Shown: positions 5,493 through 58,900, counted from the stretch's first letter. The stretch: DNA of 64,000 bases from a virus (IMGVR_UViG_2806311071_000002:32001-96000); one strand, 5' to 3'. The notes: generated from the letters alone by a model not told the origin. Program-made: numbers and translations.

Positions 5493-5525
5493 TCTTGTTA
5501 AAACTACAATTTTATTTAATCTAAT

Positions 5526-5562
5526 AAAGTTGACAAAGCTGGTTAAGCCCTGTCAACTTTTT
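5526..5562. terminator. Intrinsic terminator
   Basis: AAAGTTGACA...TGTCAACTTT inverted repeat. Confidence 0.6.
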
Positions 5563-5568
5563 GTTTAT

Positions 5569-5973
5569 CTAAATCGTTTCGTATCCTTTAAATTTAAAAA
5601 ATGTAATTTCTGTATGTCTTGTTGAAACCTTCAAATAGTCTTTGAAAAAGCTCTCTACTAGAAGCTTGGTATAAAATTCAAATATGGCTCGTCCAAACTC
5701 TGCATTATTTTCTGTTGATGTTCTTTCACGGAATTTGTCATCACTAAAGTGATGTTTATAATGGAAAATTACATTTGTGAACTCATATTCAACCCTGATT
5801 TCATTATCCTTTTCTTCAAATTCTAATTTTTCAATTTTAATCGGAGTGGTTTCAATATACGTTTTAAATAGTTCTTTTAAAGCAGATTTCAATTCACCTA
5901 ATAAGCCGTCTTTTTTCTTAACAATTTCAAAACTTAGCAATCCTTGTATTTTTCGTTTTTCCATTTTTATCAA
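5569..5973 (-). CDS. Hypothetical protein (AT-rich, in the yorB slot)
   Basis: 134-aa ORF with AGGGG RBS. Confidence 0.6.
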   Translation of the reverse strand: MIKMEKRKIQGLLSFEIVKKKDGLLGELKSALKELFKTYIETTPIKIEKLEFEEKDNEIRVEYEFTNVIFHYKHHFSDDKFRERTSTENNAEFGRAIFEFYTKLLVESFFKDYLKVSTRHTEITFFKFKGYETI

Positions 5974-6047
5974 TCCCCTTCTTTGTAATTACATCTTTAT
6001 TATATCTCAAATTTCTTAATAATAAGATATTAAAGCTTTACGTAGCC

Positions 6048-8602: not shown

Positions 8603-8875
8603 TTAATAACCACTCCTTTTTGTTTTTGCTTTATTCTTAAAACTTAAATCACATAGATAACTCACATTGTTATCACCCCCTTAAATTAGACATACAAGTT
8701 AAATCCAAGACACAATATTACCGCATTTTAAATGCACGTGTTCCTAATCTCCTTCCCAAGGGCCTTCTACTAAATCAATCTCATAATCAAATTCATCTTT
8801 TTCAATTACTTTTTTACATTCGCTGCAAAAGCAAGTAAACATTTTCACTCATCCTCTGTCTGTAAAATATCGTTT

Positions 8876-9148
8876 TTATTCAGTTTCTTTTCTTACCCAT
8901 TTTCTAACCTTCATTTCTTTTAACTCCACTTCATAACAATCCACTTGATCTTCAAATTCCCAAGGGCTTTCATGCTGGCTTTCAGTGGCACCCTTGCTAT
9001 AGAAAGTTTCAAAAAAGCGTCCTTGATATGGAAATACAATTCTATAGTGAACGCTCCACCTTGATGTGTCAGTGATTTCTTCTAAAATTGAGGACTCCGG
9101 TAGCCCCAATTCATTTACCATGTAATCCTTGTCCAATTTAATATTCAT
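8876..9148 (-). CDS. Small protein, candidate Lockin-type immune-signal sponge
   Basis: SRW and GATESQ motifs, 90 aa, overlaps the gad1 stop; family call from memory. Confidence 0.45.
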   Translation of the reverse strand: MNIKLDKDYMVNELGLPESSILEEITDTSRWSVHYRIVFPYQGRFFETFYSKGATESQHESPWEFEDQVDCYEVELKEMKVRKWVRKETE

Positions 9149-10028
9149 TCAAAATAACCCCTCTTCCTTTGCAGCATTCACATTCGACTAAAGGCTCGTT
9201 GATTTTGGCCATCAGATCATCTAAAAATTTCTTAATATTACTCTTTAAATCTTCAACGTCCTTTCCACTAAACGGTTCTACAATTGGGTAGCTCTGATAG
9301 GCTTTAGGTGCAACATTGTAAATTTCAACTTCCCGCTTTGTTTGAAATCTTTTCTCAAGTTTAGGCTTTCTCCGTTTGTACATTGCATTAAGATCAACTA
9401 TATACTCGTGAGGTTTGTAAAGCTCCAAAACTTTGACCACAGTAAAACAGAAATCATAATCACTCGTGACTCTTGCAAGTTTAGGGTTTATATTGGCTTT
9501 TATATGGTTTCTGATAATCTTATAGCTTTCTTCTCGGGACAGGTGACACGGCTTTGTTTCAAGAAGCATTGGATGAGTTTGAATTCTATCCAGTAAGTTA
9601 TAATTCAAGTTAAAATTATGACTTTGCAGCTTAAGTTCTCCGTCAATCTCTTCAATTACGTTCATTTCAAACTCAATTTTTTCATTTTGTTGTGGGACTT
9701 CTTCAAATTTCAAATCATATAGACCTTTTACTTCGTAGTATTCACTTTCTTCATCTATGTATGAAACATTAATTACTTGTGGTGTCAGATCAGTTTCCTG
9801 GAATCCCTCTTTTAATTCATACCTATGATTGATTTTTTTAGTTGGCATTTGCTTTTCAATAACACTTGGTTCCTTATCCAGCTTAAACCAGTCTGACTTA
9901 TACGTTTTAGCTGCTTGTTTCCCATCGAAAAGCAATTCATCTAATTGACTATGAAAATATCTCTTGTCTTCAATGTTGTCAGAAACCAAAAAACAGTTAT
10001 TAGTTTTAATACCAATTAGCTTCATCAA
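9138..10028 (-). CDS. gad1: Gad1-like anti-Gabija protein
   Basis: ~295 aa, MKLIGIKT start, SDYDFC motif, C-terminal CxCCKGRG; closely matches phi3T Gad1 as remembered. Confidence 0.8.
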   Translation of the reverse strand: MMKLIGIKTNNCFLVSDNIEDKRYFHSQLDELLFDGKQAAKTYKSDWFKLDKEPSVIEKQMPTKKINHRYELKEGFQETDLTPQVINVSYIDEESEYYEVKGLYDLKFEEVPQQNEKIEFEMNVIEEIDGELKLQSHNFNLNYNLLDRIQTHPMLLETKPCHLSREESYKIIRNHIKANINPKLARVTSDYDFCFTVVKVLELYKPHEYIVDLNAMYKRRKPKLEKRFQTKREVEIYNVAPKAYQSYPIVEPFSGKDVEDLKSNIKKFLDDLMAKINEPLVECECCKGRGVILNEY

Positions 10029-10109
10029 AATCTCCCTTTATTGATTTTATTTTTATCCTTATAAAATTCCTGTTTTATCTTCATCGATGCTATCTGTTCT
10101 CTCTAATTA

Positions 10110-11139: not shown

Positions 11140-11952
11140 TTGTTTGTATCGCCAATGTTATTACATTCAATCAAAGAACCATTTGATGACGATGGTTATA
11201 TTACCGAGCTTAAATTTGATGGAATTAGACTGATCCTCTCCAAGTTTAATGATCAGATAAAGCTTTATACTCGTCACAACAATGAGGTAACAAGCAAGTT
11301 CCCAGAACTCTTGGATCTTGATATACCCAATGGAACTGTTTTAGACGGCGAAATCATTGTTGCTGCCCCAGGAGGCGCTCCAGATTTCGAAGCTGTAATG
11401 GAACGCTTTATGTCTAAGAAATCAGCTCATAAGGTGGTTTACTGTGTATTCGATGTAATTTATATTGAAGGACAACCAATCGCTAATAAGCCGCTCATTG
11501 AACGTAAAAACGTCCTTTTACACCTTAACCTTGACCACGATAATGTATTTGTTATTGAAGGTTTACAAGGAAACGGATTAGCTTATTTTAATCTGGCCAA
11601 AGAAAAGCATCTTGAAGGAATCGTACTAAAGAAAGCCAACTCCCCTTATGAAATCAATAAACGTTCCCATAGCTGGCTGAAAGTGATTAATTATGATTAC
11701 ACAGATGTGCTTATCACTGGCTACACCAAAGAGGATATAAAGTTTCTTCTGTCTTATCCTGATGGTACTGCAGCTGGATTTATGGAATTCGTGCCGAACG
11801 CAGAACGAAGTAAATTCCACTCTATGAAACATGTAAAGTCTGAAACTGACGAATATGTATTTGTAGAACCAATCTTATGTAAGGTTAAACACAGATTTAA
11901 GACTAAGCATGGCAAACTCCGTATACCTTCCTTTGAATCCTGGAGAGTCTAA
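11140..11952 (+). CDS. ligB: ATP-dependent DNA ligase
   Basis: ELKFDGIR, LDGEI, VFD, EGIVLK, WLKV motifs. Confidence 0.95.
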   Translation: MFVSPMLLHSIKEPFDDDGYITELKFDGIRLILSKFNDQIKLYTRHNNEVTSKFPELLDLDIPNGTVLDGEIIVAAPGGAPDFEAVMERFMSKKSAHKVVYCVFDVIYIEGQPIANKPLIERKNVLLHLNLDHDNVFVIEGLQGNGLAYFNLAKEKHLEGIVLKKANSPYEINKRSHSWLKVINYDYTDVLITGYTKEDIKFLLSYPDGTAAGFMEFVPNAERSKFHSMKHVKSETDEYVFVEPILCKVKHRFKTKHGKLRIPSFESWRV

Positions 11953-12030: not shown

Positions 12031-12186
12031 CTATTCCATCTCAATCCACTTATAATATTTCCCTATATGACAATCAAAGCGCCAACCATCCTCAATGACT
12101 TTCGTATGACTATTCTTATATTTCGAGTGATTTAATAACACCCTAGGAGAAAACATTATTCTCTGCCAATTAAATAATTCTTTCAT
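12031..12186 (-). CDS. Small hypothetical protein (51 aa)
   Basis: Manual translation MKELFNWQRI...YYKWIEME with AGGGG RBS. Confidence 0.45.
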   Translation of the reverse strand: MKELFNWQRIMFSPRVLLNHSKYKNSHTKVIEDGWRFDCHIGKYYKWIEME

Positions 12187-12367
12187 TTTTCATACCCCTT
12201 TCCTTGTGAATTTTCACTTTTGATAACAATGTTATCTTTACAGTTCGTTCAATTAAATATTCTGCATTGCAGTAATCGCATTTTACTCTAAATTCAAGAG
12301 ATGGCTCATAAACAATGGTTTCTCCACAAATCTCACAAGGAAAAACATCTTCATTAATTGTCCCCAT
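12170..12367 (-). CDS. Zn-ribbon protein
   Basis: CEIC...CDYC. Confidence 0.55.
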   Translation of the reverse strand: MGTINEDVFPCEICGETIVYEPSLEFRVKCDYCNAEYLIERTVKITLLSKVKIHKERGMKNERII

Positions 12368-12534
12368 AAATAAATCACATCCTTTAAAATAACTATTTTA
12401 TTTTGATCCCTAAATAATTTACCAAATATCATAGCCCACAAAATCATTTAAAATATTCGTCATTTCCTCATTCTCTTCTTCTGTCAATCCATATTCATCA
12501 AGTCTCTTTAAATAATCTTCTCGTTCGTTCTTGG

Positions 12535-13819: not shown

Positions 13820-14188
13820 ATGAAATTGAATCGGGATTGCATGAGAGATGTACTACTAACTGTGGAAGAAGAGGTTGGTTTTAAAGACAGTGTATCCATC
13901 CAAACCCTCCACACATTCCCTAGACTGAAAGAATATAAACTTGTCGACATTTTTTATTGCGTTGAAAAATTAATGGAAGCTAGATTTGTCGTAGGGATTA
14001 CATACAAAGGTGGCGCTGGTGTTTCTGAGCTAACGTTCAAAGGTCATGAGTTCATAGAATCTATTCGAGATGACGATGTTTGGAACAAGACTAAGAACGA
14101 ATTAGGAAAAGTCGGTGGAGCCACATTGCCTATCATCGTTGAACTAGCCACTAGTTTTTTAAAAACTAAACTAGGTCTCACTGTCTAA
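13820..14188 (+). CDS. DUF2513-like winged-helix protein
   Basis: MKLNRDCMRDVLL...LTFKGHEFIESIRDDDVW. Confidence 0.8.
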   Translation: MKLNRDCMRDVLLTVEEEVGFKDSVSIQTLHTFPRLKEYKLVDIFYCVEKLMEARFVVGITYKGGAGVSELTFKGHEFIESIRDDDVWNKTKNELGKVGGATLPIIVELATSFLKTKLGLTV

Positions 14189-14960
14189 CCCCGCTACTCC
14201 CGAAGCCGCCTGCACCTCGATCGCTATCGCCGAGCGTATCAACTTCCGTAAACGCCACCTGCTCGACCGGCTTGATTACGGCTTGGGCGATACGGTCGCC
14301 TTTTCGGATGATGTACGAACCTTTCGCAAAATGATCCCAAGCTCCGAGGTAATCGAGAGCACTGACGATTTTATCTCTGATATCGAAAAGAAAGTCCTTT
14401 TCAATATCTGTATAACGATTAATATTGTCGACGATCACTCCGACCTCTCCTCGATAGCCCGAATCAACTGTTCCGAGTTGCACACGCAGTCTAGTATTCA
14501 GCGTAATGCCCGAGCGCGGTCGGATCTGCATTTCGTAAGTATGAGCTTCTGAAGTGTAGTGATGCCTATTTAATTTTATATGAGTCTTCGCTTCTGCTTT
14601 GGTCAAAAACATTGTATCCGGCCGTACAATATGAACCTTTCGTTCTGGAATTAATTCTGCTTCTTCATCAATGTATTTTTGAATCCACTCAATAGGATCG
14701 TCAAAGTCGCCCTTTTTCAACTCAGTTAAAGCTTCCTTAGAGAGCTCACTATCTTCTTTTAAATCTTCTAAATAATCATCTAAAACATATGCTTCTGCAA
14801 TATATGGCAGGTATACAGAATACCGTTCTGCGTTTTCTTCCCGAACTTCGACCCATTCATAATCGCCAACTGTCCAGAAACGTGGTGCAGCTTGACAGTC
14901 GCTGTCTTGATTTTTCAACTCTTGCTGAAGTTCTTTTAAAAACTGAATATCTTGATTCAT
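14178..14960 (-). CDS. Chimera: YoqJ-like N-terminus fused to a 5'-truncated trimeric dUTPase
   Basis: dUTPase motifs 2-5 (RPRSG, GTVDSGYRGE, GDRIAQ, RGAGGFGSSG) present, motif 1 (AGxDL) absent. Confidence 0.75.
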   Translation of the reverse strand: MNQDIQFLKELQQELKNQDSDCQAAPRFWTVGDYEWVEVREENAERYSVYLPYIAEAYVLDDYLEDLKEDSELSKEALTELKKGDFDDPIEWIQKYIDEEAELIPERKVHIVRPDTMFLTKAEAKTHIKLNRHHYTSEAHTYEMQIRPRSGITLNTRLRVQLGTVDSGYRGEVGVIVDNINRYTDIEKDFLFDIRDKIVSALDYLGAWDHFAKGSYIIRKGDRIAQAVIKPVEQVAFTEVDTLGDSDRGAGGFGSSGVRQ

Positions 14961-15083
14961 TCGCTTCCTCCTATCTGTTTAAAATCACGATTTTAATTTA
15001 ACTTTAATGTGTATCATCTTGAGAAAATCCCCTTTAATTGGTAAGCTGACACCAGATCATACTTATACAAGGCAGGTGATGTC

Positions 15084-15458
15084 ATGAATAAAATAATCGG
15101 AATGGCTGGATTAATTATCTCCTTACTTGTGTCAGGGTTTTCAGCAAGTGATTCATTGACTCAAAAGATCGCTATGGCTTGTCTATTTTTGTTCTTATTG
15201 ATTTATAATTTTGAACATACTAAGGAGTTCTCTAAAAAATCTTTGGCTATTATAGGCTCTTCCTTCATTGTATTAATGCTTGGAATTTATCAATTGCTCT
15301 CTATAACTGGTGATTATTTTAAGAGCCATGGCTTAAATATGGGCCTTATCATCTTACTTGAGATTGTCTTAGTTATTGTATTAGTGACTGCTGCGCTGAG
15401 TTTAATCAAGTATATGGCTGATCGGTTAAGGAAAACACCTGTTGGTAAAGAGCTTTGA
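15084..15458 (+). CDS. Membrane protein with 4 predicted TM segments (YoqO-like)
   Basis: Four hydrophobic segments; counter-oriented. Confidence 0.6.
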   Translation: MNKIIGMAGLIISLLVSGFSASDSLTQKIAMACLFLFLLIYNFEHTKEFSKKSLAIIGSSFIVLMLGIYQLLSITGDYFKSHGLNMGLIILLEIVLVIVLVTAALSLIKYMADRLRKTPVGKEL

Positions 15459-15868: not shown

Positions 15869-15881
15869 TGAAATAATCCTT

Positions 15882-16073: not shown

Positions 16074-16176
16074 CCCCTTTCTATATAAAACAGTCTTTTA
16101 TTACGATTCTGTAGCCTAAATTAAAAATCTCTTTCCTTCTTGGTTACAATTGAAACAGCCAAGTCAAGATTAACTA

Positions 16177-17974: not shown

Positions 17975-18012
17975 TCAATCGCCATCCTTTTTTAATAAAA
18001 TGCATCTTTTAA

Positions 18013-18465
18013 TCACTTCTTTGTAGCATAGCTTTCAAAGAATACTTCAACTGATCTTAGGTAACGGTATTTATTTGGATCTTCCGGATTTCTGAATCTT
18101 TTCGATAGCACCAATGACCAATTAAACATCAATGGGGAAAACCTCGCCCATTTGCTAAAGCTTAACTGAAGACCTTTCCATTCTCTTCCCGCTAATTCTG
18201 CTAATTCCAGAATTTGATCTTCTTTTAAATTCACTTCTTCTTCAAACATCACTTGAATTTCTTCGTATGGCTTATGCCCAAAACAACAATGACGTGTTTT
18301 CAATCCAATCTTGAAATTTAAAATATCAATTAAATTAATCATTTGTGTACCAAGCTCATCATATGGAATACCATTTTTGAGGAACTTTTCTCTTTGGTTT
18401 AGTTTCATATTATCTTTCAATAGCAGATCAAAAGAATTCATACTCACTCCGCGCCCTCCTATCAC
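18013..18465 (-). CDS. YoqC-like protein
   Basis: [10 protein letters not shown] motif. Confidence 0.55.
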
Positions 18466-19992: not shown

Positions 19993-20039
19993 TGTTCTTC
20001 CCCCTTTACCTTTCTTGATAAAACTTACATTTTATGTAC

Positions 20040-20454: not shown

Positions 20455-20574
20455 TGCTTTTCTAACTCACCACCAGATACTTATTTTTTATATTTAACTA
20501 TAATTTACGCTACAAAATAATCTTTGTCAATCAAATTCGATCATATTTTTTTCCAGATGACCGAATTTGATTTT

Positions 20575-21467: not shown

Positions 21468-21687
21468 GTTTCGACTAAGACAAATGTCCTGGTCTCCTCC
21501 TGAGTAAACCATACGGTTTACACGACTATTTTACTACATGCTGCCATTGGTGGAAAGAACTTATTTTGGCATATTGTGTCTAGTTTTGTCGAATGTCGAA
21601 ATTTTTCATATGAATATTAATATTATGCATATTTTTTATTTTTGAACATAACAAAACACCCAGCTTTAAGCTGGGCAGGGAAAAAAT

Positions 21688-22680
21688 TTAAATTAATTCT
21701 TCTTCTTTTAAACCTAACTCTTCTGCATAAAGCTTTTTTATCACTTCTTCATTAACGTAATCTTTCATACTGTAAACAGCCCTAGATCTATTACTAACAA
21801 CTAAATTAAAATCATCGATGATCTGGTATCTAACGGCATTATCGACAACGCCTCTTTCTTTATAAAGCTGATACGCTCGATAAAGATGACCTGACCTTAC
21901 AATTGTATTAGGCGTAAGAAAGTTTATTTTAAAGAATTCTGAGATATCCGTAATTAAATTTGTGATTATATGTCTACCGGCTTGCCCTTCATTTTTTCCC
22001 CGAGTTATTTTAGTTTTTATTACATAGTCATTGTCCACCAGGGAGACTTCTTTTGCCCAGCCTTCGCCTCTACCATTTTTCAATTGATACATGGTTTCCT
22101 TTGAAGCGTTTAATGCAATTATGAGACAATCACTACTAACTTTTAATTTGCGATCTCCATTCTTTATGTCATGCAATGTTAGAACATTACCGTTTAGCAT
22201 TGCTTCTTCAATTTGTTGCCGTGAAAGACTAAGAAGTTCGGAGTGCGCCATACCTGAGATACCTTCAAACAAACATCTTAGAACTGCTTTCGATTGATAA
22301 TTGAGCAGTTTTTCTTGCATCTCTTCCAGTTCACTATAGGAGATGTATAATTTTTTACCACCTAAGCACCCATATAGCTCTTCATTCGATATAGTTCTCG
22401 CTAAATTTACAGTACCCTTGCTCAAATTATAAGATGCTGCCCAATCGATATACATTGACAATAATGATAATGTTCTTTTTACACTCCCAATTGTTGTTTG
22501 ATCGAATGATCGTATTAGCTCTAAAATCTGTACTGAAGTGAAATCATAAATATCTTTTTTATAAAGATTTTCCGTTATTTCTGATTTTGAGAACAAGGGT
22601 CTCAACTGGTGAGCTACTGCCTCTGTAACAGAATCTAAATACTTTTCCTTAATATCACTATTGAACATTGCATCAAACAT
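21688..22680 (-). CDS. yopR: Integrase-fold master repressor (MrpR/SroF)
   Basis: Tyrosine-recombinase-like, but LFEGISG/TIVRSG lack the catalytic R and H; last gene of the sro operon. Confidence 0.85.
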   Translation of the reverse strand: MFDAMFNSDIKEKYLDSVTEAVAHQLRPLFSKSEITENLYKKDIYDFTSVQILELIRSFDQTTIGSVKRTLSLLSMYIDWAASYNLSKGTVNLARTISNEELYGCLGGKKLYISYSELEEMQEKLLNYQSKAVLRCLFEGISGMAHSELLSLSRQQIEEAMLNGNVLTLHDIKNGDRKLKVSSDCLIIALNASKETMYQLKNGRGEGWAKEVSLVDNDYVIKTKITRGKNEGQAGRHIITNLITDISEFFKINFLTPNTIVRSGHLYRAYQLYKERGVVDNAVRYQIIDDFNLVVSNRSRAVYSMKDYVNEEVIKKLYAEELGLKEEELI

Positions 22681-22688: not shown

Positions 22689-24080
22689 CTAATTAAATTG
22701 CTGCTCTATCTCAATTTCTCTGAAGAAGTCACAAATTTTTTGAGGAGCTCTCGGAATACCGTTATTATCAATGACCCCAAGCTCCTTCCAAAGAGGATTG
22801 TCTTTTCTGAAATCAATTGGTTTTAGTATCTCTTCGACCTTATTTTCTACATCATCAATCGATACATCTGATTCCTGTAATCGTTTCGCTAATTGAACAT
22901 AGCCGTTAAAAAACAAATTGGCGTTAACAAGAGATCGCTTCCGTTCGTCTGCAATACTGCCTAAAAATTCATCAATATAAATATTGGCCATAGCATCAAA
23001 AAAGGCACTTAAGTATCTCCCGGTTTTCAAGATGTCTGCTTGATTGCTAAAATCCTTTTTAGAATAGTTGCGTTCAACAGCTTTCTTGAAATCCGAAAAA
23101 GTAATTAACAGGTTTTGCCCGCGGTTGATCCAGTCACTGTTGGTCTTAATGTAATCGCCAATGAGACTGTTATCTTGAATAAACTTAACGATCTTATTCG
23201 AGAAATAATGCTGACTCATCTCAGCAACCTTAGATTTTTTCACTGGGTTTATAGTGTTCTGTTGTCCAAAATGCTCTCTAGCCTGTTTTTGAGTGTAATT
23301 GTATATGTCTACTTTGAACACACGCTTTAGCAAATGCTTTAATTCAGGATGTTGTCTAATAGCAGTGGTTATCCCGATAAGTCTATGATACCCGTCCAGC
23401 ACGTCCAAAATTGTACCTTCAGTTACTGTTAAAGACATATTTTCTTCGTCATATATTAACTCAATTCCTTCATCCGCGCTGCCTACACGTGCATTAAAAG
23501 TGAACATTGAGCTTATTAATTTTCCCTCTTTAAACAACTCTTTAATTTCATCTACTGATTTTTTATTTAATTCAGGAACGGGTATTTCAATATCAGTTCC
23601 TTCAAGTTTCTTGGTTTTATTTGTTCTTTGAGCATTCGGATTATAATGAAGTAGCTTATTTTCAAATAGACGATAAAGCTCTTCAGCAGTAATCTGGAAT
23701 GTTAAATTGCTATCTGAGTATTTAACAGCGTTTTTAAAGGTGTAAGGAAGTTTAATTTCGTCTTCCACTTCACCTTCCCAAAGCGTTTCAATATCCTGCA
23801 TATCGGCTTCAGTAAAATAATTGGCAGGGTTAAACCTTTCTGATTCAAGAATCTTGAATAGGCATTTAGCTAAAAAATACATGTATTCTTTAGAAAGGTC
23901 TAACTCTGGATTTTCTAATTCGTTAATTATTTTTTGTGTTGTACCAGGAGGTATTTTGAACTCCGCCATACCTATTTGGACATCATTTATAAAAGAGCGT
24001 ATATGTTTTTTTTCAGAAAACACGTCTCTCATTTCGGTGAGCAATTTCTCATTTGCAGATTGGTCAAATATTACCGTCAT
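22689..24080 (-). CDS. yopQ: DndB/ParB-like (DGxHR) repression protein SroE
   Basis: YNPNAQR, VLDGYHR, HFGQQN. Confidence 0.85.
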   Translation of the reverse strand: MTVIFDQSANEKLLTEMRDVFSEKKHIRSFINDVQIGMAEFKIPPGTTQKIINELENPELDLSKEYMYFLAKCLFKILESERFNPANYFTEADMQDIETLWEGEVEDEIKLPYTFKNAVKYSDSNLTFQITAEELYRLFENKLLHYNPNAQRTNKTKKLEGTDIEIPVPELNKKSVDEIKELFKEGKLISSMFTFNARVGSADEGIELIYDEENMSLTVTEGTILDVLDGYHRLIGITTAIRQHPELKHLLKRVFKVDIYNYTQKQAREHFGQQNTINPVKKSKVAEMSQHYFSNKIVKFIQDNSLIGDYIKTNSDWINRGQNLLITFSDFKKAVERNYSKKDFSNQADILKTGRYLSAFFDAMANIYIDEFLGSIADERKRSLVNANLFFNGYVQLAKRLQESDVSIDDVENKVEEILKPIDFRKDNPLWKELGVIDNNGIPRAPQKICDFFREIEIEQQFN

Positions 24081-24166: not shown

Positions 24167-25309
24167 TCATTTCTCTTTTGATTCCGATTGGAATTTAATG
24201 AATTTATTCAGTATTGACGGTTCCACTGTTTCAAAAAAAGAAATAAAATCTTCTTTTTTAGCTTCATAAAGAATGTCAATTTCAATGTCCTCATCCATAA
24301 TAACGCCTGCAGCCTTGGATATATCTTTTCTTTTACTCATATAACGTTCAGTGGTTGCTACACTGCTATGATTACCTTGCTCCCTCGCAGCTAATATGTC
24401 GTGACCAGTGTGTTCGTAAACAAAGTCAATACCCACGCCCTTAAAAGAGTGAAATTTCAAGTCCCTCTCAGGCGGTATTCCCAACCTTTCTTTAGACCGT
24501 TTTAGAGAATGTCTTAGAGATTGCTCAGATAGACCTTTAAAAACATAATCCGTGTCGACTGCGTTTTCATCTCTTAGTTCTAAAAGCTCTTCATAAAAAG
24601 ATTTATTGATCCCAGTAGACACCACTTTAGAGCCCTTGTCTAAAACTGAAACCACATAATGACCGGTCGTCGGATCAAGTTCAAAATCAATCCATCTTAA
24701 AACTAATAATGCGCTAAGACGAAAAGAAGTTCTTGCTGCTGCCTTCACACACAGTTTTTTGTGTAATGGTTTTTGACGTTCGTTAATATACATATCTTCG
24801 GCTATAAGATCAGCTTCTTCTTTGTTTGTTCTTCCCCAATTCTTCTCAACTGTTTTCAACTTTCCAACAGAGTCAAATACGCTTAAATCAATAAATTCTT
24901 TGTAATCGTGGTTAAGGTATTTATATAGCATTCTTAAGGATGCTAATTTTCTTTTAATACTCTTATTTACAAGTCCTTTACTTTGAAGATGTTTTATATA
25001 CCCCGCAAGGTCGCTTTTAGTGATTTCTAAATCTTTTTCAGACAAATATTCGATTTCTTTTTCTTTTATGATTCTGAAAAATTGCTTTATATCACATGCA
25101 TAATTTTTTCGTGTATTAGAAACAGCAGTTAAATCCTGAGTTTGGTACTTTGAGTTACCTGAGCTGCTGGCTATGTCTTTGGTGTAGAGAAAGCTCATAA
25201 TATCCTCAAACACCTTGTATTCCTTAATAGGTTTAATTTCTGCACTCATCGTCCTGTTCCTCCTTCCGTTTAAATTCGTTATCATCAATAAGATCATCAA
25301 TGGAAACAT
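24167..25309 (-). CDS. yopP: Tyrosine recombinase-like SroD (probable start 25249, MSAEI)
   Basis: TSFRLS, DKG, FHSFK, GNHSS, TERY. Confidence 0.85.
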   Translation of the reverse strand: MFPLMILLMITNLNGRRNRTMSAEIKPIKEYKVFEDIMSFLYTKDIASSSGNSKYQTQDLTAVSNTRKNYACDIKQFFRIIKEKEIEYLSEKDLEITKSDLAGYIKHLQSKGLVNKSIKRKLASLRMLYKYLNHDYKEFIDLSVFDSVGKLKTVEKNWGRTNKEEADLIAEDMYINERQKPLHKKLCVKAAARTSFRLSALLVLRWIDFELDPTTGHYVVSVLDKGSKVVSTGINKSFYEELLELRDENAVDTDYVFKGLSEQSLRHSLKRSKERLGIPPERDLKFHSFKGVGIDFVYEHTGHDILAAREQGNHSSVATTERYMSKRKDISKAAGVIMDEDIEIDILYEAKKEDFISFFETVEPSILNKFIKFQSESKEK

Positions 25310-26055: not shown

Positions 26056-26308
26056 AATTTCTCCTCCCGAACCTATACTTATTTTTTCTTTTTATTTCTA
26101 AATTCATTTTAATGCATTAACCCTAATAAGTAAAGATGTTTTAACGACAAATAGCACATTCTTTTTAATCTTTTTTCGAATGCGCTTGTTTCAATATTTA
26201 ATTATCGATAGTGATTTTTAGGTTTATGTAAGTGCACGGTTACTTGATCTGATGATTTTCCCTTACTTATGCGAAATTGGACTTATCTCGTGATGATCTT
26301 TAAAGCAC

Positions 26309-27809: not shown

Positions 27810-27866
27810 ATCTATTTAAAATTCGTATTTTATGAAGACATGATCCTCTTAATGAGGTCATGTCAG

Positions 27867-28433: not shown

Positions 28434-28460
28434 AAAATCATCCCTCTTTAAGATATTAAT

Positions 28461-30410: not shown

Positions 30411-30455
30411 ACGTATTCCCCTTTTATAAATAGATTGCTTTCATGAAGCATTACT

Positions 30456-32906: not shown

Positions 32907-33055
32907 TCATTCATCATGCCCTTTCCATAACAAACTTTATTGAGTCCTAGGAACACAATGTCCTAGATGTCTTATATCTGGTTAAAAGTACGATTTTATG
33001 TAGACCTAGAAATCTTGTAAGTATTTACTGTTCTTGTAACTTTAGTATATCATGA

Positions 33056-35284: not shown

Positions 35285-35644
35285 CTAACTAATTAATGGC
35301 TTAATTTCTTTTACATATAAAAAAAACTGCTGTTGACCTTCAAGAATGCCAAACATTTCATGCCTACCAGTAAAGACCCATTGAGGTGACTCCCCATTTG
35401 TCTGTATCTCTACAGTAAAGCTAGTTCCTTTTGTATTAATCTCTTCATCTTCCTCAAGTTCATAATGATGTTCAATTAATTTTTTCAGAGTTTGACTGTC
35501 TTTTATTTCTTTCGAATAAAACGTTAACTCCTGATTTTCATATTCCTTTAGTTTAAAGCCATTGTCTAGTAAGAATTGAAGGATGTTTTCATTTAATTTC
35601 GTCATGCTTTTTTCTCCTCTCTTTAAAACTGCTGTTTTATCCAC
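35285..35644 (-). CDS. Hypothetical protein (probable start MTKLN)
   Basis: GAGGAG RBS. Confidence 0.55.
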   Translation of the reverse strand: MDKTAVLKRGEKSMTKLNENILQFLLDNGFKLKEYENQELTFYSKEIKDSQTLKKLIEHHYELEEDEEINTKGTSFTVEIQTNGESPQWVFTGRHEMFGILEGQQQFFLYVKEIKPLIS

Positions 35645-36299: not shown

Positions 36300-36344
36300 C
36301 TTAATGCCTCCACACTGGTTAAAATATGCATTTCATTTAGATTA

Positions 36345-40572: not shown

Positions 40573-40848
40573 ATTATATACTGATCACTTTAATAATTCA
40601 ACAATTTATATACATATTTTTTATTTTTATATGATTAAATATAATGCTCATGAGGGGGTTTGGGGGTGGTGTGAGCAAAAATTGTTCAGGTGAGGAACGA
40701 ACCGTTTTGAACAATTATCAGCACCCCCATTCTCTTATTTTATTTATTAAATTATTTACCTCTTTTCTTCTACGAGAGACCCCCTTCAAACCCTTACGTA
40801 TCAAGGGTTTCAAAAACGATTTATTGCTTTTTTTTTCATACGCCTTAT

Positions 40849-42805: not shown

Positions 42806-43768
42806 TTATGTACACCTCCTTTCCCTATGTATCTATTATAACATTTTCCATACTAAATGTATACAATTATTATACTTATTTTTTATTTTTGTATCGTATT
42901 AGTGAATAGCGTATTGTCCATTATAATTGCGTATATGAGGATGTGGAGTTAAGTAGACTTATGGTATTAGATTGGAGATAAGAAGGCTTAGAAAGGCATT
43001 AGAAAGCTTCTGGAGGGATACTGTGAGTAATAATGTGAAAAAGTTAGGAATGATATAGGATGATGTGCTGAATGGATATGTGAAAGAGGAAACAGGATGA
43101 AGGAAGACTATGAATGTGATTAATGCGGAGAATTGGAATGCGTAATATGATGAAGAATAAAAAAATAAGACTTCGATTTGCTTCCTCTCGTTATACCCAC
43201 GATTATTTTTGATGAATGGTCATTCATATTTAAAGTACGCCCTTATTTAATTTTTGAAAATAAATCTTGTTTTTCGTTTGTAATCGTGGTAAAGCCTCAG
43301 TTTAATGGCTGAAATCATCAAATGCAGGTATAACGGATATTATATGTGCATTACATTACCAGTATATGGGGGTGTATTAACATCTAAAGGCCAAAAAACA
43401 GGAACAAATGTACCCCTAGCACTTCCATTTCCACACCCAACTTATTTTTTCACTTTCCCATTTTTCACCCTATTTTTACATCGTAATCGCTATCGTAAAA
43501 GCCTATAATATCAATGTTTTTCCACCCCTCATTCTTCCCTTTTTCATCAGATTTTTAACTGAACGACATCTTTCCCTCTCTCCTGCCTACGTTTTACGAT
43601 CACAAAACACCTATTGTCCCCTTTGACAGCCCTAAAACATTGCTATTTCAACTAATTACCCCTTTCCGATCTTCATTTACGATAAGCACTTTTTCAGCTC
43701 ACGATCACCAGGGGGTCATTAAAAATCAAAATAAAAAAGCCACCTTAGTAGGCAGCTTCCCTTTAAAA

Positions 43769-44880
43769 TTAGCGCTTTAGTCTCTTCAGTGCCTCCATAT
43801 ACGAGGTCTTTTTCGATTCCTTGCTCTCCAGTTTCTTCGGTTTAAATAAATCCTCTCTACGTCGATTTCTAGCTTTATAAACAATTGTTTCTTTCATCTC
43901 AGTGTTCCCTGTTTCAATTAGATCGTCTAACTGCTTCATCCGTTCATTGATCCAGGTTAATCCACTAAGAATGGTTATCGCCCTATTCCCCTTTTCATAA
44001 TGCCCCTTAAATAAGTCTAAAGGCATTTTGTTATCAAAGACATTAAACAGCTCATTATACGAAATATGCTCCATTAAGAACTCATGAACATCCAGAATAA
44101 CTCCTGCTCTCATCACATTTTTAAACTCAACTGGAGTGAATATCGAATTGTTCCATGATTTCTGTATGTCTTCATGCAGCTTATCAAAATACTTGCCCTC
44201 ATTTGTAAATTCAGTGAGGTCTGTTTGAGCAATAGTCATGATTCCTGGTGTATCAAAAAGCTGATTTAAATCCTTCCTGTCTAATGTACTGATCTTTGAT
44301 CCTCTGTCCGTGTAATTGAGTAAGACTTCAATTAAATCAAGGAACATCTTGTTTGTTTCCTTGTATAGTCTACTCTCAGAAATCTTCCCTTCATATTTAC
44401 TCAAAACCATTTGATTATCCAAAGGTAAAACACATGTCTCTGGCATAGATAAGTCATCAAGTAACTCCAGTGAATTCATCTGGTTAACCATACTTCATTG
44501 TTGTCAGGAAGGATTGGTACAGCAACTATTGTTTTATGAGTGAGACATTCGTTTAACAATTCTAATAATATAGGAGCTACCCCTGAACCAGTTCCACCAG
44601 CTGCAGAGAAAACAACAAAAATGACTTGAACTGAAGGCTTTTCCATTGTGTTCTTTATAAACTCAATAGAAGATTCCCAGTTGTTTTTCATATGTTTCGC
44701 TGCTACACTTCTTTCTTTGCCAACTCCTTCTGTTCCAACCAGATGAAGCTTATCCTGGACATTAACCAATGAATTAAGGTCTGAAAGTGAATAATTTATT
44801 GCAACAGAATGAAATCCTCTCTTCATTGCTTCATCTGCAACACTTCCACCGGCCTGACCTACTCCAATAAATCCAAACAT
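43769..44880 (-). pseudogene. tubZ: TubZ/FtsZ-like GTPase split by a 1-nt deletion near 44490
   Basis: GVGQAGG, AGGTGSG, ILP, LPLDN, LDRKD; restoring one base joins ORFs 44476-44880 and 43769-44491. Confidence 0.8.
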
Positions 44881-45907: not shown

Positions 45908-48427
45908 TTGAAAAGAAAAAAAGATGGATTGTCTAAGCAAGTTCACATATACAGCGTAGACACATCAGCATTTTATAATGACAAAGAAAATTCATTACAT
46001 AATAAGATTTTGAAGTCTTATAGATACAGAGATTATCTTAAAACATTAGACAATGTAAATAATAAACATAAGAAATACATATCACATAGAATTACATACC
46101 TTAAAGAGTGCCTCTATTCTGCATTCGAAGAACATAATGACATAAGAACACTTCGAACTGACAGTTTAAGGGATAATAAAGTAATTTCTTTATTTGATTC
46201 AGTGTTGACCCGTACATTAGGGATTAAAGAAAATACCCTTTCAGAGGAAATCATGGTTGTACAAACTTATCATTTTGAAGTATTGAAAGACATTATTGAC
46301 AAAGGATTTTTACATAACAATGAGAAATACGTTTATTTCACAAGCAGTGCCGGTCAAATTCGCACAAAGAAGTCATGTTTCATAAAAAAAAGCACTTACG
46401 ATAAGTATCAGGATGCTTTGACCTGTGGCTTGAGAATTGAAAAGATTAATTCCCTTGGTGGGAGCAGCATTAACAAATGGAATAGCTATATGGCCTTATC
46501 TAACAGCGCCAGTAGCCCTTGGGAGATCGATATTGATAAAGCAATTGTTGTTAACGACCTAGAAACGGATGTATCAAGCCTTGTTGACTATATTGACCGA
46601 GACACCTACGAAATCACACGAAAAACAATGAACATTCCCATTGAGCATACAGATGGCTGCGGAATGATACTCCCCACTCTAAGTCGTAAAAGCTTCATGG
46701 TAAGGCTCCCGTGGGTAAAGGGTTTATTAGTCCCTTTTGATTTTCGTAAATTTGCTGAGGAAAACAAAGCTTTTAAAGTAACTGATATATACGGCAAGGA
46801 ATGGGACGTAGTGAAAGATGATGTTCAAATTATCTTCACTAAAAGCCAGTTTAAAATGTGGAAGTATTATTCATCGTGGGAAGAATATCAAGATAATTAT
46901 AAAAAATATGGATGCTTAGGGGCAAAACTCAACGAAGAAGACCCTTCTGTTGAAGGTAAGCTCACTTATCAAATGCTCCAGACACTTACAGATATCTCCG
47001 ATGAAGAATTAATTCAAATGAGCTCAAAGACTGTAAAAGAGATTACCACATTGGGAACTGACAAAGAAACCATGTTAAGAGTTCTTGGAGCTACGGAGAA
47101 AAAGAAACATCGGACAACTCTTCAGGACGCTTTACTTCTATATCCAGAACTTCTTAACGATGATCACACGAAAGAAATTATTAAAAATAAAAAGAAAAGC
47201 ATGATTAAAGATGCCAAATCAGGAAAATTGCTTGTTGATGGTGCTCGTTATACATACTTATGCCCTGATCTATATGCTTTCTGCGAAAAATTATTTCTGA
47301 ATATCCAGAATCCAAAAGGAATGCTTTCAGGAAGTGATGTCCATTGTTCTTTATATGATGAAGGGTATATTGACATCCTCCGCTCCCCTCACCTATTCAG
47401 AGAGCATGGTGTTAGGTGGAACAAAAAAGATGAGAAATATGAAAAGTGGTTCATTACCCCAGGTGTTTACACAAGCATTCATGATCCGATATCTAAGTTG
47501 CTGCAGTTTGATAATGACGGGGATAAGGCCTTAATTATTTCTGATGAGTTAATCGTCAATATTGCCAAGCGTAATATGGAGAACATCGTTCCTTTGTATT
47601 ATGAAATGTCAGTAGCCCAGAAACAAGAGATTAATAGCAGGAACATCTATGAAGCACTAACCCTTGCTTACGGAATCAATATCGGGGAGTACAGTAACAA
47701 CATCACTAAGATATGGAACAGTGACAATATAAACCTGGACGTGATCAAATGGTTATGCATGGAAAATAACTTTACTATTGATTTTGCAAAAACCTTGTTC
47801 ATGCCTACCCGTCCTGATCATGTTGATGAAAAAATCAAAGATTACATAAAAAATAAAGTCCCCCACTTCTTCATCAACGCAAAGGATAAAGAAGAACATA
47901 GCGTTGAGTTTATTAATGAAAGCACAGTAAATAAGTTAGACTGCATTATCCCTTCTGACCGAATTAATTTCGCAGCTGTTGCAGGAAAGTTCGATTATCG
48001 CTTCCTACTCAAGAACAAGGATATTAAATTGGACGATGCAATTATTCGTGAATATAAACGATTAGACCAGAACAAGAAATGGCTCATGAATGATGAGGAC
48101 ATTAAGCCTGGACAAAAACTTTATGTTTATAAGGTTATCAAAGACAGATTGTTGAAAATCCATAATGACGAGCAATATGTTGCTGATGTTTTAGCAAAGT
48201 ACCTATATAAAAAGAAAAGCAAATTTAAATCAACATTATGGGAGTGCTTTGGTGAGATTCTATTAAATAACTTAGCAATAAACTTAAAGAACAGGAAGGT
48301 ATGTTTAAGCTGCTTGAAACCTATAAGCAATAAAGGAAACAAGAAAAAATACTGTACAAAATGTTTAAATGAACGAGAAAAGATAAGAAAAAGAGAATGG
48401 AAGAGAAAACAACTGGTAGCGAAATAG
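45908..48427 (+). CDS. yonO: Single-subunit two-barrel RNA polymerase
   Basis: RSPH, catalytic FDNDGD, TDGCG, C-terminal CxxC..CxxC; 839 aa. Confidence 0.93.
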
Positions 48428-51120: not shown

Positions 51121-51131
51121 GTGGTGACTGA

Positions 51132-52331: not shown

Positions 52332-52478
52332 AAGGAATGATTCTATGTCTGCCAACGAATTTATTGAAATATTAGCAGAACATTGGGACAACCTGTCCCA
52401 TGAAAGCAAAAACACTTTAGTAAATTTGATTGTTAATTGATTTAAAACTTTAATTTTATTCAGATTGGAGCAGTGTAA

Positions 52479-52808
52479 GTGGCTGATCACAAAGATGTTT
52501 ACGAGTCTTTCTGGAAGGAAATCATTGAAGATGGAACAGGAAATATTAACAAAGAACAATTAATGAAAGAGCTGTGTGATTATAAGTATCTGTTGGATTC
52601 AATTCCTGCTGTTTATGAAGAAGTGACTTGTAATACTGTAAGTAAGCCATTTGCTGATCCTAAATATGTTATTGAGACTCATAGAGAAGCTTTTATAAAT
52701 AAAAGAATTGTCATAGATGATTTAAGAAACATGAGTGTGGCAGCAAAACACTATTCACCTTATGAGACAGTTGTGAGCCTAGGAGCTATTGAAGGTTTAT
52801 TAAAGTAA
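52479..52808 (+). CDS. Hypothetical protein
   Basis: GGAG RBS, GTG start. Confidence 0.6.
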   Translation: MADHKDVYESFWKEIIEDGTGNINKEQLMKELCDYKYLLDSIPAVYEEVTCNTVSKPFADPKYVIETHREAFINKRIVIDDLRNMSVAAKHYSPYETVVSLGAIEGLLK

Positions 52809-54350: not shown

Positions 54351-54352
54351 TA

Positions 54353-56128: not shown

Positions 56129-56146
56129 AAATTGAGGAGGTGAATA

Positions 56147-57688
56147 ATGACTACACCTGAACCACAGCCATCATATGAGTTTAATACAAATTTAACACCG
56201 CTTGATTCATTGTTCTTTAATGATTTATTTAACGGCATTTCTTACGACAAAGTTAAATCATGGCTGAAAGACCACAACACCTACAATAAACAGATTAGAG
56301 ATGCCTCTAAATTGCTTTATAACGCAAATGGTGTGTATAGAAACGTTATTGACTACATGGTAGCCCTCCCTACTTTAGACAGAGTTATATTGGGGTCAAG
56401 TAAAGCAACTAATTTTAAATCGAACAAACAAAAGTTCAACCTGGCTTTAGGGAAAATCAGTGACAAAAGTGTTGTCAGGGATTCATTAGGAAAGCTCAGC
56501 AAATATGGTACTGGTTTTTATTATTTTGATTCTGTGGTGAATGATTCCTTCCCCACTACTCTAAGTGACAATGAGATCGGATCAATAACTGAATCAAATA
56601 CCATTGACGACTTTAATTGTTCAGTCCTCCCCCTTCCTCTCGATTATTGCAAAATTATCGGCAGGAAAAATTCCTCTTATCAGTTAGCTTTTGATGTCTC
56701 CTATTTTGACAAGTTCACAACTAACGGAAGGTCGCTCAAGCTTAAACGATGGCCAGAAGAAATCAGACAAGGTTATAGAGCTTATAAAAAAGATCAAAAT
56801 CGAAAATGGCTAGTTCTTGATAACAATAAGACCATTGCTGTTAAAGGAAGTAGCGACATTGAAGATCAATGGGGACGCCCAATCGGTTTATCTGCATTTA
56901 TTGATATGGTTTATGATGAATACTTTGTTGACACTAAACGGAACATTTTAGATGAGCTTAACAGTACTTTAATCTACCAGACCTTCCCTGAAGGCGATCA
57001 AAAAGGTAAATCAGCTTTATCTCAAAAGCAACAGGAACAGCAGCACGAGAATATAAAAAAAGCGTTAGTTGCCAAAGGCAGTGTTAAAGGGGTTAAGTTC
57101 TTCTCTTTGGCTTCGGGAACAAAATTAGACAAGTTAGAAACTAATGTGGATTTCTTGAAGGTAAAAGGTGAAGACGAGCTCATTAAACGAATCACTACAA
57201 ATTTAGGATTTGCAGGATCTGCTCTCAATGGTCAAGACGGTAACTACTCTTCTCAACAAACCAATATTGAGATGGTTTCTTCCCAAATATTCTCCTGGTT
57301 AGAACAAATCCAAAGTGAATTTAACAAGGTGATAAACGCCAACATCATCAAAGATCCTCGCTCTTATATTGAGGTTTACTACCTCCCTCTTACCCACGTT
57401 AACAGGAAAGAAAAAGTCCAAAACATGAAAGACCTTTATACAAGTGGTCGAGGCAGCCTTATTGCTTGGATAGCCGCTACTGGATGGAATCCTGATGCTT
57501 ACTTATCCCTAATGGAATATGAAAAAGACGAAGGTTTTGATGAAAAGTTCCCTGTTCATGCAACCTCTTTCACAATGAGCAAGAATAGTGATAAGTCAGC
57601 CGGCGCACCTGAGATCGATACTCCGAAAAATGAAAACACGATTAAATCGAAGACAAATAACAGTAACGGAACGCCTTCTGGCTCTTGA
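56147..57688 (+). CDS. yonE: Portal protein
   Basis: 513 aa, follows terminase; synteny. Confidence 0.75.
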   Translation: MTTPEPQPSYEFNTNLTPLDSLFFNDLFNGISYDKVKSWLKDHNTYNKQIRDASKLLYNANGVYRNVIDYMVALPTLDRVILGSSKATNFKSNKQKFNLALGKISDKSVVRDSLGKLSKYGTGFYYFDSVVNDSFPTTLSDNEIGSITESNTIDDFNCSVLPLPLDYCKIIGRKNSSYQLAFDVSYFDKFTTNGRSLKLKRWPEEIRQGYRAYKKDQNRKWLVLDNNKTIAVKGSSDIEDQWGRPIGLSAFIDMVYDEYFVDTKRNILDELNSTLIYQTFPEGDQKGKSALSQKQQEQQHENIKKALVAKGSVKGVKFFSLASGTKLDKLETNVDFLKVKGEDELIKRITTNLGFAGSALNGQDGNYSSQQTNIEMVSSQIFSWLEQIQSEFNKVINANIIKDPRSYIEVYYLPLTHVNRKEKVQNMKDLYTSGRGSLIAWIAATGWNPDAYLSLMEYEKDEGFDEKFPVHATSFTMSKNSDKSAGAPEIDTPKNENTIKSKTNNSNGTPSGS

Positions 57689-57705
57689 GAGGAGGTGATT
57701 AGTAT

Positions 57706-58860
57706 TTGAAAAGCACGATTTTAGAAATTAACAATCAGAAAAAAACCAGTGGTCAGACATACATCAAGTGGGTCGTTCTTGAAATTCATGAAAACAATAC
57801 TCAATTTAACAAGAATGGCATTACCTGGCTGGAGAAATACATAAACGCTAACCTTGAATCAATCAAGTTAATGCCAATTTGCGCAGAGTTCTTGGATGAT
57901 GAAAACAGTGAGCCATTCGGACACGGGTTAACAGAAGTCAAGGACGGTACCCCGCTCTTTGAAAACAGCGCTGTGGTTGGTACGACCACCAATGCTTACA
58001 TTGATACTATAGATGTTAATGGTGAGCCAAAAAGAGTGTTAATAGCTGAAGGCTTCCTATACAACCAGCGCTACCCTAAATTTGTTCAATGGTTAAAATC
58101 AAAAATGTTTGATGGTGATTTCCCTGAAACCTCGGTTGAGATAGCAGCTGTGGAAGGTTCAGATGCAATTGAATATGAAGGTGGCTGGAAAGAACAAGGA
58201 CGTATACCTATGAAATTTGACTTTACAGGTGATGCAATTTTAGGTATTGACCCTGCAGATGACGCTGCCATTTTACTTGAATTAAACAGTAACAAAAAGG
58301 AGGATAATTTAATGTCAAAATCTCAAGAAGAAGTAGTCCTTGAATTAAACAACAAACTTGATAATAAGAATAAAGAAATTGGAGAGTTAAATCAAAAAGT
58401 TGAGAAACTTACTGAGGACTTAAAGCAAAAAACTGAAGAACTGAATGCTGCTGTTAAAGCTGCAAAGGATGAAAAAGCTAAGGCTGAAGCAAAAGAAAAA
58501 GAAGCGCAAAAAGCCAAGGATGAAAAAGCCAAGGCAGATGAAGAGCTTAATTCCCTAAAGGAATTCAAAAACAAGGCGGTAGCCGAAAAGATGCAAGGAG
58601 AGCTTAACCAAGCTTTAAAGGAATATTCTCCTGAAGAAAAGGATGTCGCAAAAGAGAAAATTGAAATGTTCTCTAAGTCCCCTTCTATCGAGCTTAAAAA
58701 CGAAATTATTTCTGAAATCAACTCAGCAATCGCTCGATCCTTCATCGCTGAACGCTCAAAGAAACAAGCCTCTGAGACTAATAGCAAAAATTTCGATATT
58801 TATTCAGACGTTCGTGATTCTGGGCAACAAGGTTCAGTGACAATTGATGATCTTTATTAA
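57706..58860 (+). CDS. yonD: Prohead protease/scaffold
   Basis: N-terminal GHG and TSVEI, long coiled coil. Confidence 0.65.
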   Translation: MKSTILEINNQKKTSGQTYIKWVVLEIHENNTQFNKNGITWLEKYINANLESIKLMPICAEFLDDENSEPFGHGLTEVKDGTPLFENSAVVGTTTNAYIDTIDVNGEPKRVLIAEGFLYNQRYPKFVQWLKSKMFDGDFPETSVEIAAVEGSDAIEYEGGWKEQGRIPMKFDFTGDAILGIDPADDAAILLELNSNKKEDNLMSKSQEEVVLELNNKLDNKNKEIGELNQKVEKLTEDLKQKTEELNAAVKAAKDEKAKAEAKEKEAQKAKDEKAKADEELNSLKEFKNKAVAEKMQGELNQALKEYSPEEKDVAKEKIEMFSKSPSIELKNEIISEINSAIARSFIAERSKKQASETNSKNFDIYSDVRDSGQQGSVTIDDLY

Positions 58861-58900
58861 GATAAAATAACACTTTTATAAAATTTAGGAGGAATACTCA

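Follow-up and report, generated by a model that had tools for sequence, protein, structure and literature searches.

What allows SPbeta-like phages of Bacillus to exchange their accessory genes while the order of the surrounding genome stays fixed? The question is raised by a stretch of 64,000 nucleotides of viral DNA (IMGVR_UViG_2806311071_000002:32001-96000, here called the window), which covers positions 32001-96000 in the record of a provirus of 122,255 bp, an SPbeta-like Bacillus phage, and is similar to other SPbeta-like Bacillus phages in patches, at 84-90% identity. The palindrome TAAAA-N6-TTTTA is repeated in the window, and a preliminary description of the sequence had suggested that it marks the borders of accessory gene cassettes and that it could act in cassette shuffling. 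Comparison of 11-12 SPbeta-like genomes, this phage included, shows that the motif marks places where genomes of this group exchanged cassettes. The reading to which we lean is that it forms the core of a site of about 28 bp, recognised by a protein dimer, at which SPbeta-like phages would cross over with one another.

The palindrome in the window and in related phages

Thirteen exact copies of the motif were found in the window, against 0.94 expected and a maximum of 4 in dinucleotide shuffles. Twelve of them had been listed before and were recovered at the same positions; the thirteenth lies inside the yoqV-like ligase gene (11140-11952, plus strand), so that the earlier statement that every copy sits between a stop codon and the next ribosome-binding site is true of 12 of the 13 and fails for this one. 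As it has no relatives and no breakpoints, this copy is probably a chance match. When the spacer was varied from 0 to 15 bases the only peak was at six (13 copies in the window and 34 in SPbeta, with 0-4 at other spacings), and the controls with a reversed motif and with a direct repeat were flat throughout. The excess is therefore not a product of composition or AT-richness. The whole phage record contains 24 copies.

The degenerate copies fared less well. One-mismatch copies at 15869, 17241, 34658 and 36320 and variants with a five-base spacer at 16086, 53314 and 53383 are present as described, but these classes are not enriched, the one-mismatch class standing at background with 23 N6 copies against 22 N7 copies. 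The only clearly genuine one among them is that at 36320, a one-base variant of a 16-mer which 8 relatives keep at the collinear position. A further degenerate copy claimed near 30427 is not credible, having at least three mismatches. The stretch from 36.4 to 52.4 kb had been reported as free of the motif, and there are indeed no exact copies between 35624 and 52443.

In 12 genomes 86% of the 395 copies are intergenic, the distances from the end of the motif to the following start codon peak sharply at 20 nt, and in 74 of 278 tandem cases the TAA of the motif is itself the stop codon of the upstream gene. Many copies stand directly upstream of the Shine-Dalgarno sequences of early genes, and some lie between convergent or between divergent genes. 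This position next to the Shine-Dalgarno sequence, often overlapping the preceding stop codon, would suit a small hairpin, a processing site or a translational operator acting in the RNA, on the 5' side of the ribosome-binding site in many early genes. A stem of five A-U pairs is however unstable: folding of the sites gave -0.6 to -2.7 kcal/mol, with z-scores from -2.1 to +0.3. The outer arms show no compensatory variation, bases beyond the core pairing no more than after shuffling, and the copies between convergent or divergent genes fit the idea badly, as do the breakpoints described below, which it leaves unexplained. A hairpin or processing site was rejected on folding and covariation, and any RNA role appears very improbable to us.

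Other ready explanations were also discarded. Scans gave 53 promoter-like matches at the motif against 52 expected and 9 terminator-like matches against 7.9 expected, and this lack of enrichment rejects a sigma-A promoter or a terminator. A YonO promoter was rejected as well: YonO initiates a single late operon, ahead of yonK (PMC5467207), and the motif is found mostly in the early region.

The conserved sequence extends beyond the palindrome. When the half-sites were oriented by transcription and pooled, T(80%)-Y-T(73%)-N-D-W was found ahead of TAAAA on both sides, which gives an extended site of about 28 bp, TYTNDW-TAAAA-N6-TTTTA-WHNARA, arranged approximately as 11-6-11 bp. In orthologous alignments the centre diverges by 5.3%, the arms by about 4% and the flanks by 8-10%. 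On this evidence and on that of its distribution, given next, we regard the motif as shown to be a real and phage-specific site in double-stranded DNA.

The same spacing dominates in relatives. Each of ten other whole Spbetavirus genomes has 29-43 N6 copies against 0-5 at neighbouring spacings, and Psychrobacillus phage Perkons, whose YonO is 50% identical, has 17 against 0-1. Among relatives in IMG/VR the N6 peak is retained as long as YonO is at least about 50% identical, and it weakens in more distant ones; the whole records of three relatives bearing YopP (G002, G003 and G004) contain 36, 28 and 7 copies, and three relatives without detectable YopP contain 9, 7 and 5. A motif common to the host was rejected, since 400 kb of a Virgibacillus chromosome showed no N6 peak (8 copies against 3-6 at other spacings), while the provirus in the same contig has 28. 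No description of the motif was found in a review of SPbeta (PMC8270828), in a comparative preprint on Spbetavirus, in the MrpR paper (PMC10516654) or in full-text searches, a survey that did not cover the 1999 genome paper.

Two observations concern single records. In G004, whose YonO is 54% identical, the leading palindrome is TAATA-N6-TATTA with 10 copies, beside the 7 copies of TAAAA-N6-TTTTA, and a YomM homologue was not detected; the arm specificity may have shifted in this phage. A 133-kb contig labelled Streptomyces sp. (L241) encodes a YonO 97% identical to that of the phage studied here, an indication that the assembly is contaminated by a contig from a Bacillus phage or prophage.

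Homology breakpoints and cassette exchange

An all-against-all blastn comparison placed 659 of 4543 distinct endpoints of homology (14.5%) within -10 to +25 of a motif start, a zone that amounts to 0.95% of the sequence. Starts of homologous blocks peak at -9 to +2 and ends at +15 to +23, that is at the two edges of the 16-mer, and 216-bp probes gave the same picture. Same-strand intergenic regions of 16-200 nt have 2.76 endpoints when they carry the motif and 1.13 when they do not; 90% of the former and 46% of the latter have one or more. For the window taken by itself, the zones at the motif make up 0.73% of the sequence and contain 21 of the 169 endpoints, and the intergenic regions of the window have 2.83 endpoints with the motif against 0.88 without (p = 0.0024).

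A conserved binding site of any kind could in principle appear as an island of homology, and SPBRE served as the control for this. SPBRE is the operator of MrpR, located at ten promoters by chromatin affinity purification sequencing (ChAP-seq; PMC10516654). It draws no excess of breakpoints: 0.45 endpoints were counted per SPBRE operator (n=88) and 0.36 per generic gene-start window, against 1.74 per motif site. The two elements are alike in being intergenic inverted repeats of the same phages, repeated along SPbeta and accompanied by a recombinase-fold protein encoded nearby, and SPBRE is bound by a protein with the tyrosine recombinase fold. That they might be one and the same, with the motif as operator of MrpR (YopR), is refuted at the sequence level and can be given next to no credence. 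The consensus of SPBRE, as read from the ten target promoters of SPbeta, is about ACAAATACAAAWAATATGTATA, unrelated to the TAAAA motif; it occurs in some ten copies at promoters, and the six SPBRE-like sites of the window lie elsewhere. All 10 ChAP-seq peaks of MrpR are at SPBRE (PMC10516654), which also excludes YopR/MrpR as the protein that binds the motif.

Breakpoints that concentrate at an interrupted palindrome, a form typical of nuclease sites, could also point to a phage nuclease or nickase of homing type (HNH or GIY-YIG), several genes for which are annotated in SPbeta-like phages. Cuts made in mixed infection would then be repaired from the co-infecting genome, leaving mosaic borders. 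Repair tracts should end at variable distances, yet on either side of the 16-mer homology stops after a few bases, and such a phage would need to protect 30-40 sites of its own. Nor is any nuclease gene known that all relatives with the motif have in common. We regard this explanation as improbable.

The 16-mers formed by arms and centre behave as a fixed scaffold. Eleven genomes contain 80 distinct 16-mers, of which 33 occur in at least 7 genomes; each is present at most once per genome, and the shared ones are perfectly collinear in every genome. In genome pairs sharing a 16-mer, neither flank is homologous in 400 cases, only the right in 223, only the left in 129 and both in 167, and where a flank is not homologous, identity has dropped from 100% to the background level about 6 nt away from the 16-mer. 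Flanks of several types occur both to the left and to the right of 27 of the 41 widespread 16-mers; regarded as a four-gamete test, at least three of the four gametes are present in 21 of them and all four in 4. The copy at 17996 may serve as the example, its 16-mer having 7 left and 7 right flank types in 10 combinations among 12 genomes; in 11 phages, 5 left and 7 right contexts were distinguished, with such combinations as A-a, B-a, B-b, E-b, A-c and B-c. At 12385 the homology blocks begin at -5 to -1, and at 27817 homology to 6 relatives stops at +15 to +23. With breakpoints at both its edges and a 16-mer that is kept while its flanks reassort, the motif is thus supported as the border of variable gene blocks that it had been taken for. 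Most of the change is replacement slot for slot in a fixed order and not capture of cassettes.

Two further comparisons carried less information. A gene-adjacency test on 11 genomes gave odds ratios of 2-9, mostly not significant; since nearly every junction varies the test does not discriminate, and breakpoint counts were used instead. Comparison of pairs of near-identical 16-mers was uninformative.

In a few places a cassette has been gained or lost together with one copy of the motif. Precisely where the window has its single copy at 14980, SPbetaL2 carries an inserted unit of 441 bp with one gene, together with a second copy; in phi3Ts two copies enclose 2.8 kb at a place where SPbetaL5 has a single copy; and a third two-copy indel separates SPR from the phage studied here. 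The gene gad1 (Gabija anti-defence 1) provides another case. SPbeta has the order yoqX, copy, yoqY, with a single copy of the motif, and SPbetaL4 has yoqX, a copy, gad1 with three small genes, a second copy and a yoqY-like gene, the left flanks of the two phages being identical up to the arm. In the window the copies at 10062 and 8863 enclose gad1 and a gene for a protein of 90 amino acids, which upholds the bracket proposed for them, and the spacer at 10062 differs in two bases from that of the copy preceding gad1 in SPbetaL4. The copies joined in such indels have as little as an arm of 5-6 bases in common (phi3Ts/SPbetaL5 and SPbeta/SPbetaL4).

The PeSL elements of T4-type phages (PMC2839356, PMC4122927) are likewise repeated intergenic elements in variable regions, at which indels and replacements begin and end. 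They consist, however, of a sigma-70-type promoter and a terminator hairpin, with recombination between near-identical copies, whereas the motif has no promoter or terminator signature and its copies share only 5+5 bases.

The likeness to integrons, put forward in the preliminary description through attC sites, amounts to the few clean indels in which a gene and one site move as a unit, and to an accessory cargo that includes defence and counter-defence genes. Beyond this the analogy breaks down. An attC site measures 57-141 bp and folds as a single strand with paired R and L boxes, whereas the motif measures 16-28 bp, with a negligible hairpin and no covariation of its arms. Integrons have IntI next to attI and Pc, with promoterless cassettes arrayed in a single orientation; the motif system has no attI, Pc or IntI, its sites occur throughout the 122-kb genome in a fixed order, and its cassettes lie in both orientations, each gene having its own ribosome-binding site. 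An integron-like platform adjoining yopP was also not found.

Individual sites and neighbouring genes

The features of the window are collected in Table 1; yopP, yopQ, yopR/mrpR and aimR were placed by comparison with SPbeta.

Table 1. Motif copies and other features of the window.
Feature	Position	Strand	Description
Motif copy	5499..5514		Spacer CTACAA; between 5569-5964 (-) and yorC-like 5100-5477 (-); 16-mer only in this genome
Motif copy	8863..8878		Spacer TATCGT (coding strand ACGATA); its TAA is the stop of the 90-amino-acid gene; downstream border of gad1 cassette; 16-mer in 7 of 12 genomes, 4 left and 4 right flank types
Motif copy	10062..10077		Between yoqX-like gene and gad1; upstream border of gad1 cassette
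Exact copy	11505..11520		Within yoqV-like ligase gene; no relatives, no breakpoints
Motif copy	12385..12400		Abuts ribosome-binding site of 12170-12367 (-); 16-mer in 3 genomes, left flanks all different
Motif copy	14980..14995		Between divergent 14178-14960 (-) and 15084-15458 (+)
Motif copy	17996..18011		After yoqC-like gene (18013-18447); 16-mer in 12 of 12 genomes
Motif copy	20019..20034		16-mer in 10 genomes; 8 left and 3 right flank types
Motif copy	27817..27832		Between aimR and AT-rich three-gene block 27867-30410
Motif copy	32983..32998		16-mer in 8 genomes; 4 left and 4 right flank types
Motif copy	35624..35639		Its TAA is the stop of the 220-amino-acid gene (35637-36299); 16-mer in 7 genomes, 6 left and 3 right flank types
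One-mismatch copy	36320..36335		Last arm TTTCA; with 35624 flanks the 220-amino-acid gene
Motif copy	52443..52458		Late (+) region, 20 nt before start of 52479-52808; 16-mer in 10 genomes
Motif copy	58863..58878		Late operon, between 57706-58860 and 58901-59365; 16-mer in 4 genomes, both flanks conserved
gad1	9138..10028	-	PF25705, E 4e-149; cassette cargo between 10062 and 8863
yopR/mrpR	21688-22668	-
yopQ	22689-24080	-	DndB/ParB-like domain (PMC8612738)
yopP homologue	24167..25249	-	Phage_int_SAM_1 and Phage_integrase domains; Xer-type tyrosine recombinase fold; candidate enzyme or binder
aimR	26553-27713	-
Three AT-rich genes	27867-30410	-
Helicase gene	36345-38141	-	UvrD/Rep type, 598 amino acids
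Tubulin/FtsZ-family GTPase domain	44476-44880	-	PF00091, E 1.4e-16; where SPbeta has yonR-yonS
yonO	45908-48427		Late genes follow on plus strand
SPBRE-like sites	5017-5036, 20476-20495, 21624-21643, 26074-26093, 40609-40628, 42871-42890	-	2-3 mismatches to SPbeta consensus

The pair of copies around the gene for a protein of 220 amino acids stands as proposed, the one at 36320 having decayed from a 16-mer that 8 relatives keep. For the three AT-rich genes next to aimR, which had been labelled SIR2 and HNH, no Pfam match was obtained at E <= 0.001.

Where the first base of the centre is T the arm reads TAAAAT, a hexamer resembling a -10 box; this applies to only about half of the copies. At 5509-5514 and 14990-14995, on the minus strand, the sequence is like a sigma-A promoter, with a -35-like hexamer upstream.

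The six SPBRE-like sites (0.14 expected), which stand upstream of genes such as the yorE-like, yopM-like and yonT-like ones, probably serve this phage as operators for MrpR. The 16-kb stretch without an exact motif, from 36.3 to 52.4 kb, is mostly without SPbeta homologues and includes the helicase gene; the gene with the GTPase domain and its neighbours look like part of a TubZ-like module. The gene-by-gene comparison with SPbeta places yonO and the late genes that follow it.

Candidate proteins and the proposed exchange

YopP is a core gene product of the phage group (PMC10516654). A profile of ten members of its family matched XerA best (3.5e-11), then XerD (1e-8) and, weakly, XerH; a phmmer search of YopP against PDB sequences gave no match, and a structure prediction from the single sequence (pLDDT 32) was uninformative. 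Residues R177, K205, H267, K270, H294 and Y303 are invariant in the family down to 25% identity. The earlier statement that YopP keeps R, K, H, H and Y is therefore right for these residues, but the position of the second catalytic arginine (Arg II) of XerA is taken by the invariant lysine K270, which gives HxxK in place of the HxxR of the family. YomM, whose gene lies a short way beyond the window (G000:C1:100683-101678, plus strand) and is intact by a direct search, has the same HxxK pattern; with 61% identity between the SPbeta and Perkons proteins, it surpasses most structural proteins in conservation. YopP and YomM may represent a distinct active-site variant.

The layout of Xer/dif sites, in which inverted arms of some 11 bp each enclose a 6-bp centre and are most conserved in their inner bases, is also that of the motif, and the tyrosine recombinase geometry recognised in the preliminary description thus extends to 11-6-11 bp. 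A similar site is difH, on which XerH acts as the single recombinase; it reads TGAAAA-6 bp-TTTTCA, and replacement of its four A's abolishes recombination (PMC3325230). The A4-N6-T4 core is common to both, and difH/XerH of Helicobacter and Campylobacter, as well as archaeal XerA/dif, have palindromic inner arms, a 6-bp centre and a single recombinase. They differ in that difH is one chromosomal site for dimer resolution, against 24-43 sites per phage genome, and in the fifth base of the arm, which is G in difH and T in the motif. We know of no link of the motif to FtsK.

In the pdif/dif modules of Acinetobacter plasmids, recombined by XerC and XerD (PMC6449649, PMC13141974), many 11-6-11 sites are likewise dispersed over one replicon and bound accessory modules whose combinations vary among related replicons. 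The phage genomes similarly show two-site modules in differing contexts and combinations, through flank reassortment and two-copy indels. The differences are that the motif belongs to a phage, that each of its sites has a centre of its own and a fixed place in the order, and that its candidate enzyme is phage-encoded with a lysine at Arg II. Since the arms of the motif are palindromic, one protein and not a XerC and XerD pair is implied. The dif site of Bacillus itself is unlike the motif in sequence.

Heterospecific lox and FRT sites, which have identical arms and differing centres, are used for recombinase-mediated cassette exchange. The motif resembles them in its common arms and differing centres, an arrangement that would allow exchange slot for slot without deletions within a genome; its 16-mers are unique per genome and collinear, with centres conserved like the arms, although conservation at deep divergence is absent. 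To our knowledge no natural cassette exchange system based on heterospecific sites has been described.

If the motif is the core of a crossover site, a dimeric protein encoded by the phage would recognise the double-stranded site of about 28 bp at junctions each having its own six-base centre, the order of junctions being fixed among related phages. Where two phage or prophage genomes reside in one cell, exchange between their copies of a given junction would swap everything on one side, and two such exchanges would replace a cassette slot for slot, leaving the gene order unscrambled. Rare exchange between neighbouring, non-identical copies would add or remove one cassette together with one copy. 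The catalyst would be a site-specific Xer-like tyrosine recombinase binding the arms, most likely YopP and otherwise YomM, and matching centres would favour exchange at allelic sites in the manner of heterospecific lox and FRT sites. That a dedicated recombinase of this kind performs the exchange seems to us quite possible, if short of probable; that matching centres direct it is a tentative suggestion. As doubtful, for the present, is the complete picture of a natural cassette-exchange system, in which 25-45 dif-like sites, alike in their arms and each with a six-base centre of its own, would be served by an R-K-H-K-H-Y enzyme (YopP or YomM) swapping defence, anti-defence and accessory cassettes slot for slot.

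Several observations weigh against recombination by a dedicated enzyme at these sites. The lysine at Arg II in YopP and YomM may mean altered or lost catalysis, and MrpR (YopR), a paralogue of both, is a pure DNA binder with a recombinase fold (PMC10516654). Homologues of YopP were found in all five records of the YopP clade and in none of the seven low-density records (YomM-like proteins in 11 of the 12), but this co-occurrence with the motif is confounded, being essentially one lineage split, and relatives without YopP still have a small N6 excess, with 5-9 copies. Only 3-4 clean two-copy indels were found. Six-base centres are shared with distant relatives at chance level only; as they are not conserved at deep divergence, their role as an address is backed only on shallow timescales. 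In very short intergenic regions selection alone forces surviving breakpoints to lie near the motif, and the cross-genome breakpoint statistics are pseudo-replicated by shared ancestry. Finally, in laboratory hybrids of phi3Ts and SPbeta the crossovers lie inside identical blocks of 1.4-18 kb, and one is in a 40-nt motif-free interval of yonO. Ordinary homologous recombination therefore operates in these phages, and could also use the 16-22 bp of identity at the motif. The edges of the identical blocks in these hybrids coincide with motifs, although crossovers within such long blocks cannot be placed relative to them.

The strongest alternative is a regulatory or architectural site, bound without catalysis by a dimeric phage protein, for which YopQ or a catalytically silent YopP is a candidate. 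As the site is conserved by selection, the motif would be the sole island of identity between unrelated cassettes, to be used by homologous recombination through a Sak4-type annealase or RecA, as proposed for PeSL. The fixed distance of about 20 nt to start codons, the preservation of the motif across a wide clade, the example of MrpR in the same phage as a recombinase fold that acts purely as an operator binder, the DndB/ParB-like domain of YopQ and the demonstrable formation of hybrids by homologous recombination in the group all agree with it. Yet SPBRE, which is longer and more uniform, attracts far fewer breakpoints, and a centre that is not contacted should drift like the flanks, which it does not. 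An identity of 16 bp is short for exchange of the RecA type, and the indels of phi3Ts/SPbetaL5 and SPbeta/SPbetaL4 join copies with only 5-6 bp in common. Copies between convergent and divergent genes are also a poor fit to one role in gene expression. We consider this explanation unlikely on the whole, though a serious one.

Among temperate phages of Bacillus subtilis, SPbeta and its relatives serve as the models, and several recently found anti-defence genes, gad1 among others, come from their variable regions. A defined joint of 16 bp would account for a shuffling of such cargo that leaves the phage intact, and the motif would provide a rule for finding cassette borders, and hence new accessory genes, in any relative. 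It would also give a testable role to yopP and yomM, two conserved and so far unexplained recombinase-like genes, and if the enzyme works as proposed the sites would constitute natural orthogonal recombination sites for engineering. Should the motif instead be bound without catalysis, it would still be a previously undescribed, genome-wide binding site in a well-studied phage.

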